DNA of 64,000 nt from Candidatus Eiseniibacteriota bacterium (GCA_963783375.1 CAWANH010000003.1:259418-323417); one strand, 5' to 3'; positions 34,652 through 49,196 are shown, counted from the stretch's first letter. Notes: generated from the sequence alone by a model not told the origin. Program-made: numbers and translations.

Positions 34652-35872
34652 TCAAAGCGATTCCTGGTAGGCCGCCTCCCCGTGGAGGGCGGCGTCCAGT
34701 CCGGACAGCTCGTCGGCCTCGCTGGTCCGGACGGTGGTGATCCGGTTGATGAGGACCAGCATGATCCAGGTGAACCCGAAGGCGTAGATCGACGACGCGA
34801 CAACGGCCACGACCTGCTTCACGAAGAACGCCGAGTTGCCGTAGATGAGCCCGTTCTGCCCCGCGCTGTTGACCGCGGTGCTCCCCAGGATCCCCAGCAT
34901 GATGATGCCGAGGGCTCCACCCACCCCGTGCACCCCCCAGACGTCGAGGGCGTCGTCCCAGTGGAGCCGGTTCTTGAGGTTCACCGCGAAGTAACAGACG
35001 ATCCCGGAGAGGATGCCGATGATCGCCGCGCTCCCCGGTGTCACGTAGCCGGCGCACGGGGTGATGGTGGCCAGACCGGCCACCGCGCCGGTCAGGAGTC
35101 CGAGGAACTTCGGCTTCCGCTCGAAGATCCAGGCCAGGAGCATCCAGGTGGGTCCGGCGAAGGAGGCGGCGAGATCGGTGTTGAAGAAGGCCAGGCCGGT
35201 GACCGCGTCCACCCTGAGTTCGCTCCCGGCGTTGAAGCCGTACCAGCCGAACCACAAGAGGCCGGTTCCCAGCGCCACCAGCGGGATGCTGTGGGGCACG
35301 CTGTCCGCCACCCTTCTTCGGCCCACGTAGAGCACGGAAGCCAACGCCGCCATCCCGGCGATGTTGTGCACCGCGATTCCTCCCGCGAAATCGAGCACCC
35401 CCCAGGTCGCCAGGAGCCCTCCGCCCCAGATCATGTGCACGAAGGGGAAGTAGACCAGGAAGTGCCAGGCGACGAGGAAGACCAGGTAGGCCGGGAAGCG
35501 CACCCGGTTGGCGAAGGCGCCGGTGATGAGGGCCGGAGTGATGATGGCGAACATCATCTGATAGGCGACGAACACCAGGAGCGGGATGTGGCCGTCGGCG
35601 AAGGGGGTGGTGGGGGTCACGCCGCGGAGGAAGGCCATGTCCAGGTTCCCGATGATCCCGCCGGCCCCGCCGCTGAAGCAGAGCGAGTAGCCGCAGATCC
35701 ACCAGAGAATGGTGGTGACCCCCATCGAGACGAAGCTCTGGATCATGATCCCGAGCACGTTCTTCCGCCCCACCAGCCCGCCGTAGAAGAAGGCGAGACC
35801 GGGGGTCATCAGCATGACCAGGCTGGTGGCCACCAGCATGAAGCCGGTGTTGCCGGTATCGAACGACGGCAT
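34652..35872 (-). CDS. amtB: Ammonium transporter
   Basis: LMTPGLAFFYGG, YQMMFAIIT, DFAGGIAVH, WFGWYGFNAGS, DDALDVWGVHG. Confidence 0.96.
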   Translation of the reverse strand: MPSFDTGNTGFMLVATSLVMLMTPGLAFFYGGLVGRKNVLGIMIQSFVSMGVTTILWWICGYSLCFSGGAGGIIGNLDMAFLRGVTPTTPFADGHIPLLVFVAYQMMFAIITPALITGAFANRVRFPAYLVFLVAWHFLVYFPFVHMIWGGGLLATWGVLDFAGGIAVHNIAGMAALASVLYVGRRRVADSVPHSIPLVALGTGLLWFGWYGFNAGSELRVDAVTGLAFFNTDLAASFAGPTWMLLAWIFERKPKFLGLLTGAVAGLATITPCAGYVTPGSAAIIGILSGIVCYFAVNLKNRLHWDDALDVWGVHGVGGALGIIMLGILGSTAVNSAGQNGLIYGNSAFFVKQVVAVVASSIYAFGFTWIMLVLINRITTVRTSEADELSGLDAALHGEAAYQESL

Positions 35873-36016
35873 GGATACCTCCTCGGCGCGATCCGGAGAT
35901 CCTCCGGGGTGGAGGCCGCCCGGGGACGCCACCCCGGGAAGATGACGGCGTGGATGAGGAGGCTCAATCAGGAAAAGCCTGATTCGGAGGTTCGCGATTC
36001 CTGAGAGGGGGGAGTC

Positions 36017-36667
36017 CTACTCCAGCGGGGTGAGCCCTTCGCGAACGGCGTACTTGGTGAGCTCGGCCACCGAATGGAGGTCCAGCTTGTCCATGATCTG
36101 GCGCCGGTGGGTCTCCACCGTCTTCCCGCTGACCGAGAGGCGGTCCGCCATCTCCTTGGTGCTGAGTCCTTCGGCCAGCAACTGAAGCACCTCGCGCTCG
36201 CGAGGGGTCAGGAGCCGGAAGGCGGAGCGCTCGGGAGGGGGCTCCTGGGCGGCGAAGTCCTGGACCACCACGTCGGTGATGGCCGGGCTCAGGAACACGT
36301 GTCCCTGCATGACGGCCTGGATGGCCTGCACCACTTCGGGGAAGGCGCTGTCCTTGAGCAGATATCCGCGGGCGCCGGCCCGGAGGGTCTCCGCCACGAA
36401 TCGCCGGTCGGCGTGCATGGAGACGACGAGGATGCGGGTCCGGGGCGATTCGGCGGCGATCCGGCGGGCGGCCTCGACGCCGTTCAGGCCGGGCATGGAG
36501 ATGTCGAGCAGCACCACGTCGGGCTGAAGATCCCGGCTGAGCCGCACCGCCTCCAGCCCGTCGGCCGCCTCGCCCACCACGTTGAACCCCGGGGATCGCT
36601 GAAGCAGCGAGCGCAACCCGTCCCGGAAGAGCTGGTGGTCGTCGGCCAGGAGGACCCGGGCGGTCAC
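36017..36667 (-). CDS. NarL/LuxR-family response regulator
   Basis: LADDH, LLDISMPGLNG, LTPREREVLQL, KTVETHR. Confidence 0.95.
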   Translation of the reverse strand: MTARVLLADDHQLFRDGLRSLLQRSPGFNVVGEAADGLEAVRLSRDLQPDVVLLDISMPGLNGVEAARRIAAESPRTRILVVSMHADRRFVAETLRAGARGYLLKDSAFPEVVQAIQAVMQGHVFLSPAITDVVVQDFAAQEPPPERSAFRLLTPREREVLQLLAEGLSTKEMADRLSVSGKTVETHRRQIMDKLDLHSVAELTKYAVREGLTPLE

Positions 36668-37896
36668 AACGACGCCCCTCCCGCAAGCTCCAGGGGCACC
36701 CAGAGAAGGATGGTGGCCCCGGCCCCGGGGGACGAGCGCACCTCGAGCCGTCCGTCCATATGGCGCACGCGTTCACGGATGCTGAAGAGTCCGAAGGTCC
36801 CGGTCTCCGCGCTCGCCGCCACGACCTCGGCGCAGGCCGGATCGAACCCCGTGCCGTCGTCGGCCACCCGGACCAGGAGTCCTCCCGCCTCGCGTCGAAG
36901 GGAGATCCCGACCCGCTCCGGCCGACCGTGCTTGGCCGCGTTGGTGAGGAGCTCGCGCACCGACTTGAACAGCATCACCCGGGTCGCCTGGTTCAGCTGC
37001 GGGAGGTCTGGGGCGACGGAGACTTCCACCCCGAAGCCGTGCTTGGTCGCGAACTGCTCGCCCAGCCACTCCAGGGCCGGCCCCAGTCCCAGCTCGTAGA
37101 GCATGGGGGGGCTCAGCTCGCCGGTCAGGGTGCGGGTGTAACGAACGGCCTGGTCCACCAGGCCCAGGATCTCCCGCAGGCTCGACTCGAAGCCGCAGAA
37201 GACCGCCTCGCCGGCGAACTCCGCCAACCGGAGCTTCACGAAGGCCAGCGCCTGCCCCAGGTGGTCGTGGAGGTCGGCGGCGATGGCCCGACGCTCCCTC
37301 TCCTCGGCCAGCGCGAGTTCCGCGGCCAGGCGGCGCAGCTGCTCCCGGTGGCGCTCGATCTCCGCCCGGGCGCGGCGGTGCTCGACGATCTCCGCCTGGA
37401 GCGCCGCGTTCATGGCCCGGAGCTCCGCGGTGCGTTGCTGGACCTGCTGCTCGAGCCGGTCGTGGGCCTGGAGCGCCGCCTGGTCCCCGAGCAAGTGCTG
37501 CAGGTACATGCGAAGCATCTCGGCCAGGGAATCGATGAGATCCCGCTCCTCGCGAAGGAACGGACCCTCGTCCGCCGGCGGACGCTCCTCCAGGTAGCAG
37601 ATCTCCAGGCTCCCCCTGGACTCTCCCCCGGCGCCGTCCGCGCGGGCGGTGAAGGGGGCGCGCTGGACCCAGGGCGTGTCGCGAAAGCCGGGGCTCGCGT
37701 ACTCGCCGTCGAGGAGCCGGAGCCGGGCCCCGGCCACCTCGGGATACTGCCAGGCGGCGGGGAGAAAGCCGACGATCTCCTGCATCAGGCCGTCGACCGG
37801 CCGCTGGGTGTCCTGGAGGAGCCGCGCCGTCCGGTGGAGCGCGGTGAGTTCCTTCACGCGCTCGCCGAGATTGTGCCGAATGGAGTCCTGGGTCAT
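36664..37896 (-). CDS. Cytoplasmic HisKA_3 sensor kinase with N-terminal GAF-like domain
   Basis: ERRAIAADLHD H-box, ELLTNAAKH, DDGTGF, FGLFSIRER; no TM segment seen. Confidence 0.92.
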   Translation of the reverse strand: MTQDSIRHNLGERVKELTALHRTARLLQDTQRPVDGLMQEIVGFLPAAWQYPEVAGARLRLLDGEYASPGFRDTPWVQRAPFTARADGAGGESRGSLEICYLEERPPADEGPFLREERDLIDSLAEMLRMYLQHLLGDQAALQAHDRLEQQVQQRTAELRAMNAALQAEIVEHRRARAEIERHREQLRRLAAELALAEERERRAIAADLHDHLGQALAFVKLRLAEFAGEAVFCGFESSLREILGLVDQAVRYTRTLTGELSPPMLYELGLGPALEWLGEQFATKHGFGVEVSVAPDLPQLNQATRVMLFKSVRELLTNAAKHGRPERVGISLRREAGGLLVRVADDGTGFDPACAEVVAASAETGTFGLFSIRERVRHMDGRLEVRSSPGAGATILLWVPLELAGGASL

Positions 37897-38207
37897 GGTC
37901 CGCCCCCGCCGCGGCTTCAGATGCGGGGCCCCGGCGACGGGGATTATCCCCGGCCGCGGAGCCTCCGGCAAGCCGCGATGCGGCGCCGCCCCGCGCCCGC
38001 CCCCCCCCAAGCGGACCGTCTCCGGGACGTGGACACCGTGTATGCCGCCGCGGACAGCCGTCCAGCTACCGGCGGCATTCCGGCGCCGCGGGCGGGTCCT
38101 CCAAGCGCGCGGAGGAATCGCCGGTTGGGCGTTTCATCCCGGTTCTTTTCCGGACTGGCCCGAGTCGTGCCTAAGGGCCCTTCGGACACCCACCGCGAGG
38201 AACCGCC

Positions 38208-40301
38208 ATGAACGTGATGCGCCACGCCCTGTTTCGATTCTCCCGCCCGCTGACCGGCGTGTGGCTGGCGCTGACGCTGGCCGGCGGGGCGCTCTTCGTG
38301 GCCCGCTTCGACCTCAACAACTCGGTCGGGATTTGGTTTCCCGAAAAGGACCCGGCGCTGGCCGGGTACGAGAGGTTCCTGGATACCTTCGGCCCCTGGG
38401 AGTGGAGTCTCCTGCTCCTGGAACCCGAGACGCGACCGGACCCCGCGCTCTTCGCCCATGTCCACGCGCTGGCCGAGAGCCTCCAGGCGATGCCGTCGAT
38501 CCGCCAGGTGGTCGATCCGCGGCCGGGGGCCGCTCCGGACGCGGCATCCGCCGCCCCGCGCCCCGCCTCCGGGCCCCCGTGGGTCCTCCCGCTCCTCCTC
38601 GAAACCGCCAACGAGATCCACCGGGGGGACGATTTCCGCCGAGGGATGCTGGCGGCGATCGACCGTCGGGTCGAAGCGTGCCCCGGCATCCGGTCCCACA
38701 CCGTGGTGGGAACCTCGGTGATCAACGTGGGGCTGAACCGCTCCGCGCGCCGGGACATGATGCTCTTCTTCGGCCTGGTGTTCGTGCTGCTGGCCGGGAT
38801 GAGCCGGTTCATGCTCCGCTCCTGGCGGGACACCGCGGTGCTCCTGGGAGTGGCCTCGGCGGCGGTGATAACGACCCTGGGCCTCGTGGCCGGGATGGGC
38901 TACACCTTCAACATCCTCACCATCATGATGCCGACGGTGCTGATCGCGCTCTCGGTGGCCAACCTCGTCCACCTGGTGCACGTGTTCCATCATCACCGCC
39001 GGACCCGGGGGTGCGGCCCCCACGAGGCCGCGCTCCGGGCCGTCCGCGAAGTCCGCCTCCCCGCGCTTGGAACCACCCTCACCACGGTGATCGGGTTCCT
39101 GTCCCTGGCGGTGAGCGACATGCCCCCGGTCCGCCAGCTCGCGCTCTTCAGCGCGGCGGGAATCGCCCTGGCCTGGATCGCCACCCTCACCCTGGCGCCG
39201 ATCCTCCTCACCGCGATGTGGGGCGGGCGCCGGGAGGCCCCTCCCGCTCCCCGGCTCCGGACGGCCCGGCTGGACGGGTGGGCGCGACGACTCCCCCGCC
39301 TCGGGGCATGGCCGGTTCTGGTCCTGGTGGCCACCACGCCGCTCCTCGCCGGGCTGGCGCGCCTCCACACCGACACCAACTACGTCGAGTTCTTCCGCCC
39401 CGGTTCGGAGGTGCGCGGGGCCTACCAGCGTTCGGAGAGCGCCGGGCTGGCCCAGACCGAACTCGACCTGGTGGTTCGCGCCCCGCGCGTCCTCGAGCCC
39501 GATGAACTCGTCCCGTACTTCAATGCGGTTCGAGATCTCCCCGAGGTTCGCGCCGTCCTCGCCCCCCGATTCACGCCCGCCCTCACCCACTTCACCGCCG
39601 AAGGCGGCCGCGCGACCCGGGCCGCGGTGTTCACGGAATTTCTGGGGAACGACGCCACCGGCGACCTCGCCCGCCGTCTCACCTCCCTCGGCGCGGCGCG
39701 GCTTCCACCCGAGGCCTCGGTGGAGGTGACGGGGAGCCCGGTGCTCTGGGAGCGCATGGACGCCAGCATCTCCCGCACCCAGCGAAGCTCGATCCTGCTG
39801 GTCGCCCTCGGCACGTTCGCGCTCCTCCTGGCGCTGTTCCGGAACCTGGCCGACGCGCTGGTGGGCTGGCTGGCCAGCGCGCTTCCCGTGGCCTGGATCC
39901 TGGGGCTCATGGGCTGGCTCGGGGTGCCGGTCACCCTGGCCACGGTGCTCATCGCGGGGATCGCCCTCGGCCTCGCCGTGGACGACACCGTTCACTTCGT
40001 GCTGGCCTTCCGCCGCCGGGTGGCGGCGGGAGCCGGCCGCCGCGAGGCGGTGGGCGACACCCTGGCCGCCCTCGGGGAGAGGATGATCGCGACCTCGGTG
40101 ATCCTGGCCGGAAGCTTCCTGGTCATGGCATTCTCCGACTTCGCGCCCACCGCGAACTTCGGGATCTTCACCGCCCTCACCATCCTCCTCGCCCTCGTCG
40201 CCGACCTCTGCCTGGTCCCCTGGGCGCTGGGACTCACCTGGCGGCGCCCCCGGTCCGCCCTGTCCACGGAAACGAACACCCCTGTGCGCGGGAGCCTCTG
40301 A
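38208..40301 (+). CDS. MMPL/RND-family lipid exporter
   Basis: Two TM halves; LTTVIGFLSL, GLAVDDTVHF, FSDFAPTANFG. Confidence 0.88.
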   Translation: MNVMRHALFRFSRPLTGVWLALTLAGGALFVARFDLNNSVGIWFPEKDPALAGYERFLDTFGPWEWSLLLLEPETRPDPALFAHVHALAESLQAMPSIRQVVDPRPGAAPDAASAAPRPASGPPWVLPLLLETANEIHRGDDFRRGMLAAIDRRVEACPGIRSHTVVGTSVINVGLNRSARRDMMLFFGLVFVLLAGMSRFMLRSWRDTAVLLGVASAAVITTLGLVAGMGYTFNILTIMMPTVLIALSVANLVHLVHVFHHHRRTRGCGPHEAALRAVREVRLPALGTTLTTVIGFLSLAVSDMPPVRQLALFSAAGIALAWIATLTLAPILLTAMWGGRREAPPAPRLRTARLDGWARRLPRLGAWPVLVLVATTPLLAGLARLHTDTNYVEFFRPGSEVRGAYQRSESAGLAQTELDLVVRAPRVLEPDELVPYFNAVRDLPEVRAVLAPRFTPALTHFTAEGGRATRAAVFTEFLGNDATGDLARRLTSLGAARLPPEASVEVTGSPVLWERMDASISRTQRSSILLVALGTFALLLALFRNLADALVGWLASALPVAWILGLMGWLGVPVTLATVLIAGIALGLAVDDTVHFVLAFRRRVAAGAGRREAVGDTLAALGERMIATSVILAGSFLVMAFSDFAPTANFGIFTALTILLALVADLCLVPWALGLTWRRPRSALSTETNTPVRGSL

Positions 40302-40464
40302 CCGGCGCGCCCCCCTCCCTCGACGCAACGCGCGACCCGGCCCGTAACCGGCCTATTCATAGATTGTTGGAAGGTTCAGACGCGGGCCGCGAACCCTGGC
40401 ATGGAACTTGGATTGCGGAGGGGCAACGGTCCACTGGGGGACCGCCAGCAAGGAGTCGAAGGCC

Positions 40465-40884
40465 ATGAAAGAGCATCACCCACATCGGGATCGCCCCCTG
40501 GCGGTGATGGCGTTTCTGGGAAGCGCTCTCCTCGCCGCCTTCTGGGCGCTCTACCTCGCCGGAGCGATCACCCTGGGCGAGCCCGGAAGCGCGGTGGCCG
40601 CCTTCGAGTCCGCCTTCCCCGCCGCCGACGCCCTCGCCGCCGGGCTTCTGATCGCCGCCGGGGTGGCGCTCTGGCGGGGCCGGCCGGCCGGCCGGATGGT
40701 CATGACCGCCGGCGCCTCGATGGTGCTCTACCTCGGCGTGCTCGACCTGACCTTCTACTCGCGACAGGGTTTCTTCAGCCGGCTCGGGGGCGAGTCGCTG
40801 CTCGAGCTGGCGCTCATCGCCGCCTGCCTGGCCGGGGGGGCCTACGCCCTCGTCCGCTGCCGGCGGCTGGGGAGGACGTCATGA
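40465..40884 (+). CDS. Small 4-TM membrane protein
   Basis: Four hydrophobic segments; FESAFPAAD; ATGA overlap with the UbiA gene. Confidence 0.7.
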   Translation: MKEHHPHRDRPLAVMAFLGSALLAAFWALYLAGAITLGEPGSAVAAFESAFPAADALAAGLLIAAGVALWRGRPAGRMVMTAGASMVLYLGVLDLTFYSRQGFFSRLGGESLLELALIAACLAGGAYALVRCRRLGRTS

Positions 40885-41918
40885 ACCGCAGAGCTTCGCT
40901 GGCGCTACGTTTCGGTCAGGAATGGGGACGGGAAGTCCGTCACGAGGCGGCGGCCGCGCCGATCCTGAGCGCGCGGTTCGCCTCGGACTTTCTCACCACC
41001 ATGCGGCCCTACCTGCTCTTCCTCTCCGGGATCACCGGGCTCGTGGGTCTGGCCCTGGCCCCGCCGGTCCCGGCGCCGATCACCGCCGCCCTCGCCCTGG
41101 TGTTCTTCTTCGCCTACGGGTTCGGGCAGGCCCTCACCGACTGCTTCCAGACCGACACCGACTCGCTCTCGTCCCCCTACCGCCCGCTGGTGACCGGGAG
41201 CCTCCGCCGGCGGGACGTGCTCGCGGTGAGCCTGGTCGCCCTTCTCACGAGCGGGGCGGTCCTGGTCGCGCTTCATCCGGCGAACCTGGTACTGGCCGGA
41301 CTCGAGATCGGGGGACTTCTCACCTACACCTGGATGAAGCGCCGCTGGTGGGGCGGGCCGCCGCACAACGCCTGGATCGTGGCTCTCCTGGTGGTGATGG
41401 GCTACGTGACCGCGTCCGGCGCCGCGGGAGCCACGGTGGTCCGTAACGGACGGGTGGGCTGGGCCGCCGCCGCCGCCTTCTTCGGGTACGCGGCGTTCGT
41501 GGTTTCGGGATACCACAAGGACGTGGAGGCGGATCGCGCCACCGGCTACCGGACGCTCCCGGTCCGCTTCGGCCGGCGGGTCTCGGCCTGGACGAGCGAC
41601 GCGCTGTCCGCGGCCGCCGTGGTCTGCGTCGCGGTGCTGGTCGCCGCCGCCCCGGGATTCGGGGGCGCGGCCGGGCTCCCCGCGCTGGCGTTTCTCGCGG
41701 CCGGCGGGGCGGCGTTCCTCGCCGCGGGGGTGAAGCTCCACCGCTCGCGCACCGACCTGGACGCCCATCCCGCGATCGCCTACGTGGTCCACGCCTACGT
41801 GCTGACCCTGGCCGCGTGCGCGGCCGCCTACCGCCCGGCCTGGTCCCCGGTTCTGGCGCTCTTCTACCTGGCGTTCGTGCTCTCTCTCCGGGCCCGGCCC
41901 TGCCGGGAACAGATCTGA
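40881..41918 (+). CDS. UbiA-family prenyltransferase with divergent Asp-rich motifs
   Basis: MRPY, TDCFQTDTD...YRPLVTGSL, LTYTWMK, KDVEADRATGYRTLPVRFG. Confidence 0.88.
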   Translation: MNRRASLALRFGQEWGREVRHEAAAAPILSARFASDFLTTMRPYLLFLSGITGLVGLALAPPVPAPITAALALVFFFAYGFGQALTDCFQTDTDSLSSPYRPLVTGSLRRRDVLAVSLVALLTSGAVLVALHPANLVLAGLEIGGLLTYTWMKRRWWGGPPHNAWIVALLVVMGYVTASGAAGATVVRNGRVGWAAAAAFFGYAAFVVSGYHKDVEADRATGYRTLPVRFGRRVSAWTSDALSAAAVVCVAVLVAAAPGFGGAAGLPALAFLAAGGAAFLAAGVKLHRSRTDLDAHPAIAYVVHAYVLTLAACAAAYRPAWSPVLALFYLAFVLSLRARPCREQI

Positions 41919-41927
41919 GGTGACGCC

Positions 41928-42839
41928 ATGATGCTCGCCATCAATCCCCGGGCCGGCGGCGGCGCCGCGCTACGCCGGTGGCGCCGGATCGAACCGGAGC
42001 TCACCCGCAACCGGGACCTGGAAGTGGAGATCATCGACGACCCGCTACGGCTGCCGGACCTCGTGGCCCGGGGCATCGCCGCCGGTCACCGGACCTTTCT
42101 GGCCGGAGGAGGCGACGGGACGGTGAACGCCCTGGCCTCGGCCCTGCTGGAGACGATCGGCGCCCGCCGGACCCTGGGAGCGGTCGGTCTCGGTTCGAGC
42201 AACGACTTCCACAAGCCTGTCCGGTCCTGTTTCGGGGGCATCCCCTGCCGGACCGACGCCGATCACGCCCGTTCCTCGGACGTGGGCCGGCTGGTGATTC
42301 ACGACCCCGACGGCGGGCGGGCGGTCCGGTACTGGCTGATCAACGCCAGCGTGGGGATCACCGCCGACGCCAACCTCCGGTTCAACCGGTCTTCGGGCGT
42401 TCTGGCCCGGCTGAAGCGGATCTCGACCGGAGCGGCCATCGGTGCCGCGGCGCTCACCACGGTCCTTGCCGACCGTGGCCGGGCGCTGGAGGTGGAGGTG
42501 GACGGACGGCTGCTTCCCGGGGAGCGCTTTCGGAACCTGGGGTTCGTGAAGAACCCGAACTTCTCGGGGTGCCTTCGTTACGACTCTCCCTTCGAGCCCC
42601 GGAGCGGGGGCTTTCACGTCCACGCGGTGGGGGACGTGTCGCTCCTGCGATTGCTCTCGCTCCTGGCCGGCCTGGCCCGGGGGCGGTTCACCGGCCGCGC
42701 GGGCACCACCTCCCTGAAGGCGTGCTCCGCCCACGTCTCGGCCCCGGAGCCCTTCGCGGTGGAGTTCGACGGCGAGGTGATGCGGGCGTCCGAAGTCGAG
42801 GTCTCGATCATTCCCCGGGGACTGGAGGTGTGCGCATGA
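41928..42839 (+). CDS. Diacylglycerol kinase family lipid kinase (YegS/BmrU/sphingosine kinase-like)
   Basis: INPRAGGG, GGDGT, GSSNDF, INASVG, EFDGE. Confidence 0.9.
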   Translation: MMLAINPRAGGGAALRRWRRIEPELTRNRDLEVEIIDDPLRLPDLVARGIAAGHRTFLAGGGDGTVNALASALLETIGARRTLGAVGLGSSNDFHKPVRSCFGGIPCRTDADHARSSDVGRLVIHDPDGGRAVRYWLINASVGITADANLRFNRSSGVLARLKRISTGAAIGAAALTTVLADRGRALEVEVDGRLLPGERFRNLGFVKNPNFSGCLRYDSPFEPRSGGFHVHAVGDVSLLRLLSLLAGLARGRFTGRAGTTSLKACSAHVSAPEPFAVEFDGEVMRASEVEVSIIPRGLEVCA

Positions 42840-43891
42840 GACGGCAGGCGTTCGAGGACGGGTGGGTCGAGAGCCTGGTGCGCGGCTTCGCGCGTTCCCC
42901 CTGCCAGCTGAACCGGGTGCACGAGAGCGACGCCGAGCTGATCCGTCTCCCGGGAACCGACATGGTCCTCGCGGTGACCGTGGATCAGATCGTGGAAGAG
43001 GTGCGGGCGGGACTCTACGACGATCCGTACCTTCTGGGCTGGATGACGGTGGCGGCGTCGGCCAGCGACCTGGCCGCGGTGGGGGCGGAACCTCTGGGCG
43101 TGTTGATCGGGGAGGTGTTCCCGGTGGACCCGGCGCCGGGGTTCGTGGAGGGTCTCCGGCGCGGCCTCGTCCGAGGCCTCGGCGGCGGCGCGTCTCCCGT
43201 CCTGGGCGGCGACACCGCGTTCGCTCCGAGACCGCCGACCTCCGCCACCGCCATCGGCCTGATCCGGGACGGCGAACCGCTCACCCGGCGCGGGGCGAGG
43301 TCCGGGCACCGGTTGTTCGCGACCGGACCGCTCGGGCGGGGATCGGCGTTCGCGTGGGCGAGGTTGCAGGGCCTTCCCGCTTCCCTCTTTCGTCCCCAGC
43401 CGAGGCTCTCCGCCGGGAGGCGCGCACGCGCGCACGCGGCGGCGGCGGCGGACACCAGCGACGGGGCGCTGGCCGCCCTCGACCTGCTCCTTCCGCCGGA
43501 GGGGCTCGATCTGGAGATCCTGGCCTCGCCGGGGGCCTACCTTCATCCCGCCGCGTTACGCCTGGCCCGGGAGCTGGGGGTTCCGGAGTGGACGCTCCTG
43601 GCCGGTCCCCACGGCGAGTTCGAGCTTCTGCTGGTCGTGCCCGAGGCCGCCGCACCGGCCTTTCGCCGGGAAATGGAGGATCTGGACCTGTCACCGGTGG
43701 AGCTGGGGACGTTCCGGGAGGGTCACGGCCTGGTGCGGATTCCTTCGGCCGGGGTGGCCGTCGATCCCGCCCGGGTCCGGGACCTCCAGCGGGACGCGGC
43801 CGCCGACGCGCGCGGGTTCCTGGCCGCCCTTCTCCGGAGCGCGCACCCGTTCACGCCGGATCGGAAGGAGGCCCGCGGTGCGATTCGATGA
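42836..43891 (+). CDS. ThiL-like (PurM/AIRS superfamily) kinase paralogue
   Basis: SDLAAVGAEP, LGGDT, TGPLG, DTSDG, GEFELL; lacks the canonical VEGVHF. Confidence 0.8.
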   Translation: MRRQAFEDGWVESLVRGFARSPCQLNRVHESDAELIRLPGTDMVLAVTVDQIVEEVRAGLYDDPYLLGWMTVAASASDLAAVGAEPLGVLIGEVFPVDPAPGFVEGLRRGLVRGLGGGASPVLGGDTAFAPRPPTSATAIGLIRDGEPLTRRGARSGHRLFATGPLGRGSAFAWARLQGLPASLFRPQPRLSAGRRARAHAAAAADTSDGALAALDLLLPPEGLDLEILASPGAYLHPAALRLARELGVPEWTLLAGPHGEFELLLVVPEAAAPAFRREMEDLDLSPVELGTFREGHGLVRIPSAGVAVDPARVRDLQRDAAADARGFLAALLRSAHPFTPDRKEARGAIR

Positions 43892-44699
43892 CGCGAGCGT
43901 GCTGGTGACCGGCGCCTCGTCGGGGATCGGCGAGGCCCTGGCGCGCGAGTTCGCCGCCCGGGGATCGCGGCTCACCCTGGCCGCCCGTCGCGAAGGCCGG
44001 TTGAAACGGTTGGCCCGGGAACTGGCGGGCGGCGGCGCGGCGCGACCCCGGGTGGCGGCCGGCGACCTCGCCGCTTCCGGCCGCGCCGAACGCGTGGTGG
44101 CCGAGGCGATCTCCGCCTGGGGCGCGCTCGACGTGCTGGTGAACAACGCCGGCATCTCGGCCTACGGGGACGGCGGGGATCTCACCCTCGACGCGTACCG
44201 CCGGATCATGGAGGTCAACTTCCTCGTCCCGGTCCGGCTCACCCTGGCCGCGCTCCCCCATTTCCTGGAGCGGGGCCGCGGCCTGGTGATCAACGTGGGC
44301 TCCCTGGCCTCCCTCTACGGGGTCCCCTACCTCGGCGCCTACGGGGCGAGCAAGGCCGCCCTGGTGAACTTCAGCCAGTCCCTCCGCGCCGAGCTTCGCG
44401 GGACCGGGGTGCGGGTGATGGCGGTCTATCCCAACTACACCGACACCGAGCTCTTCGCCCGGGAAACCGTGACCGGCGGCGCGCGCCGCCCCCGGACGCA
44501 CCGCCGGCCGGCGGACCGCGTGGCGGCGGAGATCGTCCGGGGGGCGGAACGGGGGCAAAGCGAGCTGGTGCTCACCCTGACCGGAAAGGCCATGCAGCGG
44601 GCGCGAGGGCTCGCGCCGGGGCTCCTCGACCGGGTCCTGGCCGGCATGGCGGCGCGACTTCGCGACCGGGCCGCCCTCGACAGGAGGCGAGCGTCATGA
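43878..44699 (+). CDS. SDR-family oxidoreductase
   Basis: TGASSGIG, VNNAG, YGASK; AAGGAGG SD before GTG. Confidence 0.93.
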   Translation: MRFDDASVLVTGASSGIGEALAREFAARGSRLTLAARREGRLKRLARELAGGGAARPRVAAGDLAASGRAERVVAEAISAWGALDVLVNNAGISAYGDGGDLTLDAYRRIMEVNFLVPVRLTLAALPHFLERGRGLVINVGSLASLYGVPYLGAYGASKAALVNFSQSLRAELRGTGVRVMAVYPNYTDTELFARETVTGGARRPRTHRRPADRVAAEIVRGAERGQSELVLTLTGKAMQRARGLAPGLLDRVLAGMAARLRDRAALDRRRAS

Positions 44700-46189
44700 A
44701 ACCCAAGCTCCAGATCGTCGTGCTCTTCCAGAACCTGGGGGACGAGCGCCCCTACTACGCGATGTCGCCGAGCCCTCCCCTCTCCGGGCTGTTGCTCGCC
44801 GGCCTCACCCCGCCGTCGGTGGAGGTGGAGGTGCTCCACGAGATGGTGCGGCCGATCGACTACGACACCGACGCCGACATCATCGCCCTGAGCTTCATGG
44901 ACTACTGCGCGCCCCACGCGGCGGAGGTCGCGCGCCGGTTCCGCGCCCGCGGAAAGACGGTGATCGCGGGGGGGCGCTACGCGAGCACCGACCCCGAGGC
45001 GGTCGCCCCCCACGTCGACGCGGTGGTGGCCGGGGAGGCGGAGCGGGTCTGGCCCCGGGTGGTGGAGGACGCGCTCCGCGGCCGGCTGGAGCGGATCTAC
45101 CGGGCGCCGTTCGGGGCGTCGCTGGAGGGGATTCCCCCGCCCCGGTACGATCTCGCCGAACCCGAGTTCGCGGTGCCGGTGGTGACCGAGGCCACCCGCG
45201 GCTGTCCCTTCCGGTGCAGCTACTGCCAGCTCAACATCCGCCCGGCCGGATTCCGCACCCGGCCCATCCCCGACGTGATCCGCGACCTCACCGCGGTGGA
45301 CCGGTTGCCCTGGCGCAAGCGGAAGATGGCCATGCTCTACGACAACAACCTGGCCGGGGACCTCGGCTACGCCAAGGAGCTCCTGGCCGAGATCGCCACG
45401 CTGCGGTTGTGGGGGCTCGGTACCCAGTTCAGCCTGAACGCCCTCGGCGACCGGGATTTCCTGGACCACCTGGAGCGCGCCCGCTGCCGGATGGCGTTCC
45501 TGGGGATGGAGTCCCTCTGCCAGGAGAGCCTTCGCGCGGTGAACAAGCGCCAGAACCGGGTGGCCGAGTACCGGGAACGGTTCCTGGAACTCAAGCGCCG
45601 GGGCATTCTGGTCTTCGCCGGCACCATGCTGGCCATGGATCAGGACACCCGGGGCTACTACCGCGAACTCCCGGATCTCCTGGAGGAGGTGGACCCGGGG
45701 GCGATCTTCGTGTCCATGACCATCCCCATCCCCGGCACTCCCCTCCATCGCGAGGTCGAGGCCTCGGGACGGATCCGCACCGGGGACCTTTCGTTGTACG
45801 ACGGGGATCACCTGGTGGTGGAGCCGCTCCACGTGACCGAGGCCGAGGTGTACGACGCGGTGCTCGACGTCCGCCGGCGGTTCTACGCCTGGCCGAGCGT
45901 CTTCCGGCGCTGGCTCCGGTTGGGGGCGGTCTACCTCCGCGGAAGGCGGGCGCTCCCCCGGCTCGGCCCGTTCGCGCTCCTCACCTACATCCTCCTCTCG
46001 CTCTCACGCTTCCAGCGGGCGCACACCCGGCGGCGGGTGGTGCCGTTGATCGCGCGGGCGCGGGGGACGGGGGGGCTGCCGTCGCCGTGGTGGAAGCCAG
46101 ACCTCCGTCGCCGGCGACGCTCGCCGCGCCCGGAGCCGGGATCATTGATCGAGGAGTGTCGAGCCCATGGGAACGAACGGGCCTGGTGA
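44696..46189 (+). CDS. B12-binding radical SAM enzyme
   Basis: N-terminal cobalamin-binding region (IAGG...VVAGEAE); TRGCPFRCSYC; DNNL; GMES; PIPGTPL. Confidence 0.9.
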   Translation: MKPKLQIVVLFQNLGDERPYYAMSPSPPLSGLLLAGLTPPSVEVEVLHEMVRPIDYDTDADIIALSFMDYCAPHAAEVARRFRARGKTVIAGGRYASTDPEAVAPHVDAVVAGEAERVWPRVVEDALRGRLERIYRAPFGASLEGIPPPRYDLAEPEFAVPVVTEATRGCPFRCSYCQLNIRPAGFRTRPIPDVIRDLTAVDRLPWRKRKMAMLYDNNLAGDLGYAKELLAEIATLRLWGLGTQFSLNALGDRDFLDHLERARCRMAFLGMESLCQESLRAVNKRQNRVAEYRERFLELKRRGILVFAGTMLAMDQDTRGYYRELPDLLEEVDPGAIFVSMTIPIPGTPLHREVEASGRIRTGDLSLYDGDHLVVEPLHVTEAEVYDAVLDVRRRFYAWPSVFRRWLRLGAVYLRGRRALPRLGPFALLTYILLSLSRFQRAHTRRRVVPLIARARGTGGLPSPWWKPDLRRRRRSPRPEPGSLIEECRAHGNERAW

Positions 46190-46207: not shown

Positions 46208-48097
46208 TCAGCGGGGCTCGGTCTGCTCCCGCGCCTTCATGCCCTGGAGGACCCGGAGGTTCTGGGCCGCCACCTGGAGCCCGGGGTCGATGGCCACCGC
46301 CCGCTGGAAGCAGGTGATGGCGTCGTCGATGCGGTTCCGTTGGGCAGCCAGGCTCCCCAGATTCATCCAGGCCTCGACGTAGCGGGGGTTCAGCCGGACC
46401 GCGGCGCGATATTCCTTCTCGGCTTCGTCCGGCCGGTTGAGCTTGAGCAGCAGGTTGGCGTAGTTGTTGTGCGCCTCGGCGTAGTCCGGACGGAGCTTCA
46501 GCACCTTGAGGTAGAGAGGTTGGGCCTCGGCATAACGCCCCATGCGGTAGAGCTGGTTGGCGACGTTGTTCAGGATCACGAAGTTGTCGGGATCGATGGC
46601 GAGGCCCTTCCGGTAGTAGGCGAGCGAGGCGTCGGCCCTGCCCGATTCGGCCAGCACGCGGCCCAGGTTCGTGTAGGTGGCGGCCCGGCCCTGGGCGGGG
46701 TCGAGCAGGGGCCAGTTGGCCAGCACGAGCATCGCGGCAAACACCCCCGCGGCGGGAATCATGGGCCGCCAGCGGCGGCGGCCGGCCAGCCGCACCCCCT
46801 CCACGACGCCGATCGCGGCGAAGAGGAGGAGGATCGGGGTCAGCGGGTAGCGGTACCGCCCGAAGACGTAGAACACCACGACGCTCCCGGCGTACCCCAC
46901 GAGGAAGAGGAGCAGAAGCGCCAGACGCCCCCGCTCCCGCCATCCGAGGACGATGCCGAAGGCGGCCAGAGGCACGAGGATTCCGAAGTTCAGGAGCGGG
47001 CCGGTGACGCGAAGGAGCCACGACCGCTCCGCGTATACCTCCTGGGCCTCGGTGTCCGACACCTCCACGCGGTTCAGAAGCAGCAGGGTCTTCCTTCCCA
47101 TGAGGCGAAGCCACTCCCCCGGCTGTCCGGTCATGAACGCCGCCGCGCGATCCGCCCAGTAGTCCGACACCTCGGCCGGGGTGAGCCGCCGCCTCGCGGC
47201 CTGTTCGGCGAGGTCGGTCGCGTCGAGCCGCTCGAAACGCGCGTCTCCGCGCCCGGGGCGAAGCGACTCATAGGTGCCGCCGGCGCCGGGATGGTTCCCG
47301 ATGTAGAGGTTGGGACCGAACTGGGACGTCGTGAGCAGGAACTCGCCCCCCACGGCGAGATTCCGGAACCCCACCGGCAGGAGCACCAGGGCGAGCCCGC
47401 CGACCAGGTAAGCGACACGACGGAGCCTGCGGCGGAGGGGACGGCCGGCGCTCAGGAGCATCCAGAGGAGGACCAGGCCGAAGAGGACGAGCGCGTTCTC
47501 CCGGGTGAGGGCGAGGAGTCCCAGGAGGGCCCCGGCGGCCACCCAGGTCCCCGGGCGTTTGGATTCCCTGGCCCGGGGAGCGAGGACCACGAGAAGCGCG
47601 CTCAGGAGAAACACGTCGAGAACGCTCTTCTGGATGAGGCCGTCGTAGAAGATGGCCGGCGGATAGACGGCCAGCCCGATCCCGGCCACGAGACCCACGG
47701 TCCGGTTCCAGAACCGGCGACCGGCCAGGAACAGGAATCCGCAGGAGAGGGAGCCCATGAGGATCTGGACCCAGCGCGCCGCGGCCAGGCTGTGTCCGAA
47801 AAGCGAGTACACCACGCCCAGGAAGTACGGGTAGAGGGGCGCCTGGTAGAAGACCCCCTCCCCCACCCAGTGGCCGGCGGCGATCCTGGCTCCCCAGTCG
47901 TCATAGCTCAGGGCGTCGCCCATCACGACGTGGAAGAGGTCTTCGTGGCGCATCTCCACCAGATAGACGATGCGAAGCGCCAGGGCGACGCCGAACACCA
48001 GGAGCGGAGCCAGCCAGGGTCGATACCCGGAAGCGGGCTTCGTTTCGGTGGGACCGGCGGGGGTTCGCTTCGACACGTGCTGCATGCTCCTTCTCAT
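46208..48097 (-). CDS. GT-C fold (GT39/PMT-like) membrane glycosyltransferase with C-terminal TPRs
   Basis: DALSYDDWG...YQAPLYPYFL, LTRENAL, RYRYP; TPRs such as PDYAEAHNNYA. Confidence 0.85.
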   Translation of the reverse strand: MRRSMQHVSKRTPAGPTETKPASGYRPWLAPLLVFGVALALRIVYLVEMRHEDLFHVVMGDALSYDDWGARIAAGHWVGEGVFYQAPLYPYFLGVVYSLFGHSLAAARWVQILMGSLSCGFLFLAGRRFWNRTVGLVAGIGLAVYPPAIFYDGLIQKSVLDVFLLSALLVVLAPRARESKRPGTWVAAGALLGLLALTRENALVLFGLVLLWMLLSAGRPLRRRLRRVAYLVGGLALVLLPVGFRNLAVGGEFLLTTSQFGPNLYIGNHPGAGGTYESLRPGRGDARFERLDATDLAEQAARRRLTPAEVSDYWADRAAAFMTGQPGEWLRLMGRKTLLLLNRVEVSDTEAQEVYAERSWLLRVTGPLLNFGILVPLAAFGIVLGWRERGRLALLLLFLVGYAGSVVVFYVFGRYRYPLTPILLLFAAIGVVEGVRLAGRRRWRPMIPAAGVFAAMLVLANWPLLDPAQGRAATYTNLGRVLAESGRADASLAYYRKGLAIDPDNFVILNNVANQLYRMGRYAEAQPLYLKVLKLRPDYAEAHNNYANLLLKLNRPDEAEKEYRAAVRLNPRYVEAWMNLGSLAAQRNRIDDAITCFQRAVAIDPGLQVAAQNLRVLQGMKAREQTEPR

Positions 48098-48134
48098 CGC
48101 TCTTCCGGATCGGTTCCGGACCGGGGCTCCCGGA

Positions 48135-49196
48135 CTAGGGACGCACCCCTCCCTTTCGCGCTTCCAGGTTCCCGATCGCGCCTTCGATCAGCCGGGCAAG
48201 AAGGGCGTGCCCCGGGGTTCGCAGATGGATGCCGTCGTTCCGGAAGTACCTGGGCGTCTCGGTACCCAGGCGCTGGAAATCGGCCAGCGCGTCGACGAGG
48301 GGGATGTCGTCCTTGCGGCAGAGGTCGCGGACCGCGTCAGCATACCTGATGTGCACCTGGGGAATGGCCGAGACCTCCTCCCGACTCATGCCGTAGAACT
48401 GACTGAAGAAGCGGTAGGCCCAGGACGGCATGGCGTCGGGGGGGTAGGCCATGGGCGCGGTGATGAACACCGGCTGGATCCCCGCTTCCCGCAAGCGCGT
48501 CGCGATCGCCTCGAGATTGGTCCGGTAGTCCTCCAGGGGAACCCGGGGGACCGATTCATGGTGGAACCGGGCCAGGACGAGTCGCAGGTAGCCGAAGATC
48601 CGGATGGAGGACGAGAGCGTATGCTGGGCGCGGTCGGTGAGGCCGCCCTGGCCCGGCCAGTGGTCGTTCCACCCGAAATAGACGCACACGTAATCCGGAT
48701 GGTAGGCGATCAGCTGCTCGACGCGCCGGACGCCCTGGTAGCTGGTGTATCCGGGGACGGCGGCGTTGACGGCCTCGACCTTCCTTCCCAGTCGCCGGGA
48801 GAGTTCCTGGGTCACCAGATCGGGGTAGAGCGGATCGCCGAGGAAGGTGCACGAGTCCCCCAGGTAGCCGATCCTGAGCGTCCCGGCCGGCTTCTCCCGG
48901 GCGATGTCCGTCCGCCCCCGGAAACCGGCGGCGTTGGTGTAGCCGGTGCCGGGAATCGGCTTCCAGAAGAGATCGGGATCGGGCTCGAACAGGCGGACCC
49001 GGACCGGCTGTCCCTCCTTCAGGAGGCCATCCTCGTCGTAGACCGGAATGCCCGTCCGGTACCCGAACTGCAGGTACCCGTCTCCGGACACCGGCCGCCA
49101 TCCCGAAACCATGAGGTAGATCTGGAGGAGGGTCGCGGCGAGGAGGAGGCCGACGACGGCGGAGATCAGGGCGAGCAGCGCTTTCTTGGTCTTCAT
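48135..49196 (-). CDS. SGNH/GDSL hydrolase, membrane-anchored
   Basis: LGDSCTF, NAAVPGY, FGWND, DGIH; N-terminal TM. Confidence 0.88.
   Translation of the reverse strand: MKTKKALLALISAVVGLLLAATLLQIYLMVSGWRPVSGDGYLQFGYRTGIPVYDEDGLLKEGQPVRVRLFEPDPDLFWKPIPGTGYTNAAGFRGRTDIAREKPAGTLRIGYLGDSCTFLGDPLYPDLVTQELSRRLGRKVEAVNAAVPGYTSYQGVRRVEQLIAYHPDYVCVYFGWNDHWPGQGGLTDRAQHTLSSSIRIFGYLRLVLARFHHESVPRVPLEDYRTNLEAIATRLREAGIQPVFITAPMAYPPDAMPSWAYRFFSQFYGMSREEVSAIPQVHIRYADAVRDLCRKDDIPLVDALADFQRLGTETPRYFRNDGIHLRTPGHALLARLIEGAIGNLEARKGGVRP

Follow-up and report, generated by a model that had tools for sequence, protein, structure and literature searches.

A UbiA, DAGK and ThiL-like gene cassette of uncultured bacteria and a possible route to a diphosphate-activated sphingoid-type lipid

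A 64,000-nt stretch of DNA from Candidatus Eiseniibacteriota bacterium (the window) carries seven open reading frames (ORFs) on the + strand at 38208-46189, as determined by ORF calling. Three of them, encoding a UbiA-superfamily membrane transferase, a DAGK-family lipid kinase and a paralogue of the thiamine-monophosphate kinase ThiL, form the core of a cassette that recurs in many bacterial lineages. This core may convert a long-chain amino alcohol of sphingoid type to the diphosphate, and the altered UbiA would take this diphosphate as donor in building an undescribed accessory lipid; to this reading we give close to, though short of, an even chance. We infer every step of it from gene content, linkage, residue patterns and patchy distribution. 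The window lies on contig C3 of its own genome, G000 (4.73 Mb, 97% complete); below, G denotes a genome, L a locus fetched for comparison and C a contig.

Conservation and distribution of the core genes

The ThiL-like alignment was used as anchor, and the best 80 loci were fetched from each of two sets, at least 498 from genomes and at least 514 from metagenomes. The 80 genome loci were chosen by the ThiL-like gene alone and, with short contigs counted, 78 of them have DAGK and 74 have UbiA, a co-localisation of the core genes far beyond chance. All 80 are titled as metagenome-assembled genomes, and they belong to Gemmatimonadota, Bacteroidota, Ignavibacteria, Calditrichota, Zixiibacteriota, Eisenbacteria, WOR-3, Cloacimonadota, Verrucomicrobiota and Dehalococcoidia. 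A set of 56 well-flanked loci was obtained from 169 by removing nine duplicates and keeping those flanked by at least 5 kb on the upstream side and 4.5 kb on the downstream side; UbiA and the anchor are present in all 56, and DAGK in 55. The sequence-only reading of the window had proposed a new lipid pathway in which two successive kinases supply UbiA, and had named co-localisation of homologues in other genomes as a check; the linkage seen across these lineages supports this part of the proposal, for a conserved and undescribed pathway of lipid type.

The partners of the core are more variable. Among the 56 loci a radical SAM gene was found in 42, an oxoamine synthase in 37 (30 long, 7 short), any short-chain dehydrogenase/reductase (SDR) in 26, the small membrane protein gene mem2 in 18, an acyl-CoA ligase in five, a DUF3419 and GNAT pair in four, and the window-type MMPL gene in the window only. 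Five carriers with loci lacking radical SAM were searched genome-wide; it was not found in G376, G346, G907 or G367, and the copy in G175 lies 640 kb from the core. The fixed line of seven steps that had first been drawn for the window is not supported by these counts: the radical SAM enzyme is a frequent yet optional tailoring step, and the SDR and MMPL proteins are optional too. Cassettes of just four genes (ThiL-like, synthase, DAGK and UbiA) exist in L302, L307 and L308. A variant without synthase in the locus was seen in L304:3971-13359 (G378) and L092, both with a sulfotransferase and DUF3089 nearby; L304 has an additional, different radical SAM gene.

UbiA served as an independent anchor and matched 10 of 251 genomes in one class. 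All eight new genomes found in this way have DAGK and the ThiL-like gene (split across two contigs in one case); seven have the long synthase and one has mem2. The cassette is nevertheless rare, with 3/151 genomes of the window's phylum positive and further tallies of 1/401, 10/251 and 1/331, the last with three sister cassettes in addition. Two near-complete congeners of the window genome have neither the cassette nor an orthologue of its MMPL gene, and their synteny with the window stops near 37.9 kb and picks up near 52.5-55.6 kb. Patchy in its presence and set in this synteny gap, the cassette is an accessory island. Its GC and third-position GC are similar to those of the remainder of the window, and a search for phage or plasmid carriage gave one weak viral match (33% identity) and no plasmid match.

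From the flanks 99 ORFs were collected and 80 scanned, those left out being mostly opposite-frame overlaps or duplicates. The 80 are mutually unrelated and include no isoprenoid enzyme and no thiamine gene; among 21 other neighbours there is a single weak match to a squalene-cyclase domain (L084, 29.8 bits). Cassette genes split by frameshifts were seen for UbiA in L045, for DAGK, synthase and radical SAM in L043 and for the ThiL-like gene in L282, and reflect assembly errors or decay. One contig encodes a 726-aa UbiA-DAGK-ThiL fusion in which all three parts are truncated, and this was set aside as a likely assembly or gene-call artefact.

Altered motifs in the UbiA transferase and the ThiL paralogue

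Families were assigned from Pfam and NCBIfam profile scores against the curated cut-offs. Motif I of the window UbiA reads T86-D-x-x-Q90-x-D92-x-D94, and T86 and Q90, which replace N68 and D72 of AfUbiA (N to T and D to Q), were found in all 227 distinct UbiA sequences. According to the accessible part of the AfUbiA report, the Mg bridging the diphosphate is bound by N68 and D72, and geranyl diphosphate (GPP) is no longer bound when either is changed to alanine (N68A or D72A) (PMC4106721). That both Mg ligands of motif I are lost speaks against an ordinary prenyl-diphosphate donor for the cassette enzyme. Y149, K153, D214 and D218 are present in 227/227 sequences and R42 in 225/227, and the DxxxD of motif II and the tyrosine of transmembrane helix 4 are kept. 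The AlphaFold2 model (pLDDT, the predicted local distance difference test, 91.9) was matched best by Foldseek to 6m31, a digeranylgeranylglyceryl phosphate (DGGGP) synthase, then to 4od5 and 4tq3; by sequence and fold together DGGGP synthase is nearest, followed by ChlG and archaeal UbiA structures. The nearest NCBIfam models are also of DGGGP synthase type, yet the scores are far under their cut-offs (57 vs 353 and 56 vs 296). The database name '4-hydroxybenzoate polyprenyltransferase' given to the cassette UbiA is probably wrong.

This relationship raises the possibility of a hybrid lipid, since DGGGP synthase takes a lipid phosphate as its acceptor. A long-chain-base 1-phosphate made by DAGK would mimic geranylgeranylglyceryl phosphate (GGGP) as acceptor and be N- or O-prenylated by UbiA from a host prenyl diphosphate, after which the ThiL paralogue would phosphorylate the lipid phosphate. 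Ordinary allylic chemistry would be retained, in keeping with the intact motif II, R42, Y149 and K153. However, the two ligands needed for GPP binding in AfUbiA are gone, the DGGGP synthase models fit poorly and the obligate ThiL paralogue would be left without a clear role, and a hybrid lipid is considered unlikely.

A distant sister cassette was found in three Verrucomicrobiota genomes (L313, L314 and L315, from G1327, G1090 and G1168). It comprises UbiA, a SPASM-type radical SAM enzyme, DAGK (not separately called in L314), a ThiL-like protein, a flavin ene-reductase, a Kbl-like synthase and, in two of the three, an extended SDR. All three sister UbiA proteins have Gly at the position of AfUbiA D72, and the sister ThiL-like protein likewise replaces the conserved Glu. 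As motif I is changed in both UbiA families, the donor site appears to have been altered in both while the same four activities were kept together.

For the ThiL-like protein, a canonical ThiL above cut-off elsewhere in the window genome (G000:C28:542939-544006) bears out the earlier expectation, for which this check had been named beforehand, that the cassette protein is a paralogue and not the genome's only ThiL. It scores under the TIGR01379 cut-off (Table 1), as do its relatives (121-182); of the 8000 candidates scored, 570 belong to the family at E <= 1e-20. Its AlphaFold2 model (pLDDT 95) is matched best by ThiL structures, then by HypE, SelD and PurM. In a comparison of 79 cassette proteins with 30 canonical ThiL proteins (29 from other carriers and that of G000), D32, D50, D78, D126, R151, D206, S208 and D209 were kept in 79/79. 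The H-F and G-E signatures, which we take to participate in the binding of thiamine monophosphate (TMP), are present in 30/30 canonical proteins and replaced in 79/79 cassette proteins. The C-terminal G-x-x-H-F signature is lost as well and C-terminal helices have been added, and in the tree the cassette proteins form their own clade apart from canonical ThiL. The TMP pocket of ThiL is described as very conserved in the accessible part of PMC6416309; in the paralogue the residue pattern indicates a remodelled substrate site. The name 'thiamine-monophosphate kinase' carried by these genes in databases is also probably wrong.

A thiamine-phosphate kinase in an incidental or thiamine-related neighbourhood would have the ThiL-like fold and the catalytic aspartates that are seen here, and 17 of 48 carrier genomes have no canonical ThiL above cut-off. 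However, the window genome has one, as do 31 of the 48 carriers, and the 17 include 14 with ThiN above cut-off, one with ThiN fragments and one with a ThiL fragment at a contig end, leaving G175 with neither. The replaced signatures, the separate clade and the lack of thiamine genes among the 80 flanking ORFs also speak against such a role, which is most improbable. G175 is a near-complete chromosome without a detected canonical ThiL or ThiN, a minor reason not to discard a thiamine role altogether.

Oxoamine synthases and the proposed route

An alpha-oxoamine synthase of the Spt family was found by neighbour clustering in 78 of 160 loci. Because such an enzyme is present in 37 of the 56 well-flanked loci, a sphingoid product, which had been only a secondary option in the sequence-only reading, is now preferred over a prenol. 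The cassette enzymes all score under the NF047600 cut-off of 640, and in the tree the Spt-like proteins fall into three clades, namely long, short and housekeeping. The short type has S. multivorum Spt as its best PDB match (360 bits, next 306) and keeps the equivalent of Ser81, an active-site residue of Spt according to the available part of PMC10196870. A long-chain acyl-CoA ligase gene accompanies it in five of seven cassettes and in 8/8 further genes, seven of which are without a cassette; the short cassette synthase appears to derive from this synthase-ligase module, which also exists alone. The stand-alone module, seen in seven cassette-free genomes (L359 and L361-L366) and often near an epimerase-type reductase, is possibly an undescribed long-chain-base route.

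The window genome has an spt-like gene outside the cassette, at G000:C3:88794-89993 (504 bits against the same cut-off). It belongs to a run on the - strand (G000:C3:85730-89993, equal to L171:5730-9993) with genes for a 375-aa GNAT-type protein, an epimerase-type reductase and a PAP2_3 protein resembling inositol phosphorylceramide synthase, and this run is likely to be a housekeeping ceramide or inositol-sphingolipid operon. The GNAT-type protein, which matched no model or structure, is presumably bCerS, and the same neighbour was found in 30/30 and 27/30 Spt-like loci of other carriers. The layout of the run matches that of the Spt-bCerS-CerR clusters described in the accessible part of PMC11334938.

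Other roles for the cassette genes were tried and rejected. Replacement of a missing host Spt by the long cassette synthase is contradicted by a separate Spt-like gene of at least 470 bits in 31 of 48 synthase-type carriers searched; for the short type a role as host-Spt stand-in is possible, six of eight having no other match above 440 bits. The cassette GNAT has no similarity to the 375-aa GNAT beside the host spt-like gene and was discarded as a bCerS. Spt-like genes without bCerS/CerR neighbours occur in Cloacimonadota, as stated in the part of PMC11334938 that is accessible; the cassette was rejected as an account of these, with UbiA adjacent in 0/30 best-scoring loci of a sampled phylum that may differ from the submitters' label.

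The proposed route is the simplest in that every constant activity would be used once on one scaffold. An alpha-oxoamine synthase would join a fatty acyl thioester and an amino acid, the host Spt-like enzyme supplying this product in the window lineage, and the SDR would reduce the ketone. DAGK would then form the monophosphate and the ThiL paralogue the diphosphate, from which UbiA would expel pyrophosphate, probably aided by the adjacent amine given a donor other than a prenyl chain, and would join the base to an acceptor or close a ring. The product may be decorated by the radical SAM enzyme, probably of B12 type, or by the DUF3419 and GNAT pair in other carriers, and exported in some carriers by an MMPL or ABC transporter. 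With a donor that the host cannot otherwise make, both kinases would be obligate, and an amine-bearing donor would fit the loss of the Mg site. Bacterial DAGK-family enzymes are reported to phosphorylate ceramide and dihydrosphingosine in the accessible part of PMC10331486. A sphingoid product is also favoured by one carrier, G355, in which the cassette (L305:6211-15583) is interleaved with GT2, GT28/UDPGT, DUF3419, phosphatidylserine decarboxylase and fatty-acid desaturase genes.

Several observations weigh against this route. D92 of UbiA is invariant (227/227) and might take over the lost Mg-ligand role, preserving prenyl chemistry, and we know of no UbiA that acts on a non-allylic alkyl diphosphate. 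Ionisation at sphingoid C1 is chemically poor without participation of the amine, which is itself conjecture. In the long synthase, the commonest type, GGPPLLNG takes the place of the GSRFLNG of Spt, and its scores to the BioF, Kbl and Spt models are about equal, which leaves serine uncertain as its substrate; the Kbl-like synthase of the sister cassette, a third type, looks glycine-like. Of the 30 long-synthase loci, 21 are without an SDR. A synthase is missing from the window cassette itself, and no long-type orthologue was found in any of ten mem2-type genomes searched or in G000. Although mem2 and synthase are mutually exclusive in 55 of 56 loci, this was rejected as repeated independent evidence, as 19 of 21 mem2 loci, the window included, form one clade and the pattern amounts to one or two events. 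Some support for the route comes from carriers without a cassette synthase, which have a separate Spt-like gene (E <= 1e-135) in 28 of 33 distinct genomes, compared with 76/151 and 86/151 in phylum samples (tallies that take in the unpublished G015, G239 and G278, with one and two matches), but this enrichment is inflated by kinship.

In a salvage pathway for prenols, DAGK and the ThiL paralogue would convert farnesol, geranylgeraniol or phytol to the diphosphate, and UbiA would pass this on to an acceptor, which might be the synthase product. This would explain the two kinases and UbiA by analogy with plant VTE5/VTE6, and would suit the window lineage, which is without a cassette synthase and whose dedicated mem2 could serve uptake. 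The analogy, which had been central to the first reading of the window, is however undermined by the loss of the motif-I ligands and by the lack of isoprenoid enzymes among the 80 flanking ORFs, the 21 other neighbours adding just the weak squalene-cyclase-domain match. Hosts already make prenyl diphosphates, and the recurring partners are fatty-acyl enzymes, so prenol salvage is held to be quite unlikely.

The product could also be a diffusible or surface-active amino-lipid (a signal or antagonist), phosphate-activated and cyclised by UbiA, and not a bulk membrane lipid. The rare, patchy and island-borne occurrence of the cassette and its absence from the two congeners would agree with this, as would a kinase and response-regulator pair that recurs near it (each in 25/160 loci) and exporters that vary (MMPL, ABC), and oxoamine synthases are known to make autoinducers as well (CqsA). 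The long synthase is, however, far from CqsA (127 bits vs 267 for Spt and BioF/Kbl), and membrane-lipid genes flank the cassette of one carrier; such a metabolite is judged decidedly unlikely.

Taken further, the sphingoid-diphosphate route could represent a new bacterial lipid class. The ThiL paralogue would be the first identified PurM-superfamily kinase to convert a lipid phosphate to a diphosphate, and UbiA the first to transfer or cyclise a non-isoprenoid, amine-bearing chain, having given up its motif-I Mg site for this reason. The cassette, with its sister form in Verrucomicrobiota, would have spread through many uncultured lineages and exchanged its oxoamine synthases, reductases, SAM enzymes and exporters on the way. 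This wider proposal is doubtful as it stands; if true, it would bring a further lipid pathway and a new enzyme activity for each of the well-studied PurM/ThiL and UbiA superfamilies. It is directly testable, as the natural four-gene versions are small enough for synthesis and expression. Many unreported sphingolipid structures are turning up in environmental lipidomes, as the accessible part of PMC11334938 describes, and the cassette may possibly account for unassigned amino-lipids among them. What the window contributes is a lineage whose cassette lacks the synthase, the loss at motif I seen in both sister families and the apparent origin of the short synthase from the synthase-ligase module.

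The window locus and comparison with known systems

The seven genes of the window (Table 1) are co-directional, with the ATGA overlaps at 40881, 42836 and 44696 that had been noted previously. The GTG start of the SDR gene at 43878, also noted then, lies within a 14-nt overlap with the ThiL-like gene, and the gap from UbiA to DAGK is 9 nt. Translational coupling had been proposed for all seven genes and stands for six; the MMPL stop is 163 bp from the mem2 ATG, and the MMPL gene is therefore not coupled. This ATG was chosen as the mem2 start, the longest ORF beginning at TTG 40408. A promoter and terminator scan did not find a promoter-like site on the + strand.

Table 1. Genes of the cassette in the window, with profile scores in bits
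Gene product	Position	Strand	Profile matches
MMPL/RND (HAE3-like) transporter	38208..40301	+	PF03176 96
mem2, small membrane protein, 139 aa	40465..40884	+	no Pfam or NCBIfam match
UbiA-superfamily membrane transferase	40881..41918	+	PF01040 93 (cut-off 34.2)
DAGK/sphingosine-kinase-family lipid kinase	41928..42839	+	DAGK_cat PF00781 50
ThiL paralogue (PurM superfamily)	42836..43891	+	AIRS PF00586 61; TIGR01379 thiL 119 (cut-off 184.15)
Classical SDR	43878..44699	+	adh_short PF00106 170
Radical SAM enzyme with putative B12-binding domain	44696..46189	+	Radical_SAM PF04055 46; PF02310 30.8 (cut-off 32.1)

The DAGK protein has the motifs GGDGT at 61, GSSNDF at 89 and DGE at 281, and PDB matches to YegS and DgkB. 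The window SDR, with the motifs TGASSGIG, ARR, NNAG and YGASK, is likely to be an NADPH-dependent ketoreductase, the ARR motif being read here as presumed NADPH preference; its subtype occurs in 13 of the 56 loci, and the total of 26 given above covers three subtypes. The radical SAM protein has CxxxCxxC at residue 170, its best NCBIfam matches are all of B12 type and all under cut-off, and its orthologues mostly share 50-66% identity across loci. Radical SAM and the DUF3419 and GNAT pair never occur together among the 56 loci, but they were rejected as strict alternatives because L168, a duplicate dropped from that set, has both; weaker DUF3419/GNAT pairs are present in L303 and L305.

The window MMPL protein is a likely exporter. 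In L029 and L106 a different MMPL family comes directly after the ThiL-like gene, in L046 it is nearby, and other carriers have a MacB/FtsX ABC transporter near the cassette, so that export is plausible but not fixed. The mem2 protein is dedicated to the cassette lineage without oxoamine synthase, and was found in 2/151 Gemmatimonadota genomes, both cassette carriers. W27, E48, F51, A54, D55, L90 and D94 are invariant in 37 sequences; no match was found in the PDB, and a cluster atlas gave DUF8058 as a lead (14% of that cluster). A 126-aa DUF4345 membrane protein encoded after radical SAM in short-synthase cassettes (L084:11052-11429, L087, L049 and L360) may be a mem2 analogue.

Upstream, amtB, a response regulator and a histidine kinase gene (34652-38010, -) are divergent from MMPL; this block is kept in the cassette-free congeners and is hence not cassette-specific. 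Downstream, a PMT_2/TPR glycosyltransferase-like gene and an SGNH hydrolase gene (46208-49196, -) converge on the cassette within the same variable region and are unlinked in relatives.

That the combination is not a described pathway, as was first supposed, agrees with the open-access papers searched, in which no description of the cassette was found (most subscription journals lie outside this coverage). Among known systems, bacterial sphingolipid synthesis (Spt, bCerS, CerR/KdsR; Caulobacter CpgB, Porphyromonas dhSphK1) shares the logic of oxoamine synthase, reductase and DAGK-family kinase, and the short cassette synthase is Spt-like. The cassette differs in having no bCerS-like gene and in adding a ThiL-type second kinase and UbiA, and its carriers usually keep a separate spt operon. 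Its SDR subtypes score 99-125 against a cut-off of 400 for KdsR (NF049977), and the KdsR model is outside the 25 best models for the window SDR.

With archaeal DGGGP synthase (6m31), the best sequence and fold match, the cassette UbiA has motif II and the conserved tyrosine in common, whereas its motif I is altered, its scores are far under the family cut-offs and its partners differ; GGGP synthase is not among the 80 flanking ORFs, the extent of the search made for it. The paralogue and ThiL (TIGR01379; 5cc8, 3c9t and 8yku) share the fold, the Mg/ATP aspartates, the arginine and the D-x-S-D motif, but the paralogue has lost the three signatures, has extra C-terminal helices, forms a separate clade and coexists with ThiL or ThiN. 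In hopanoid clusters (HpnN RND exporter; HpnJ, HpnP and HpnR B12 radical SAM enzymes) an MMPL-type transporter is found beside a B12 radical SAM enzyme, as in the window, whose radical SAM enzyme is probably of that type, although the scores are remote (76 vs 752 for HpnN, 62 vs 578 for HpnJ and 37 vs 650 for HpnR) and both genes are optional in the cassette.

In phytol salvage of plants and cyanobacteria, VTE5 and VTE6 act ahead of a UbiA-family transferase, and the order of alcohol, phosphate, diphosphate and UbiA is the one proposed for the cassette. The kinase families are unrelated, however: Pfam identifies the cassette kinases as DAGK_cat and AIRS, not as the VTE5 and VTE6 families, which we take to be CTP_transf_1 and DUF92. 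The cassette UbiA also has its altered motif I, and the cassette partners point to fatty-acyl amino alcohols. Judged from these comparisons, the cassette falls outside ThiL, DGGGP synthase, the ceramide operon, hopanoid clusters and VTE5/VTE6, and in its working would resemble sphingolipid synthesis in part and phytol salvage in part.

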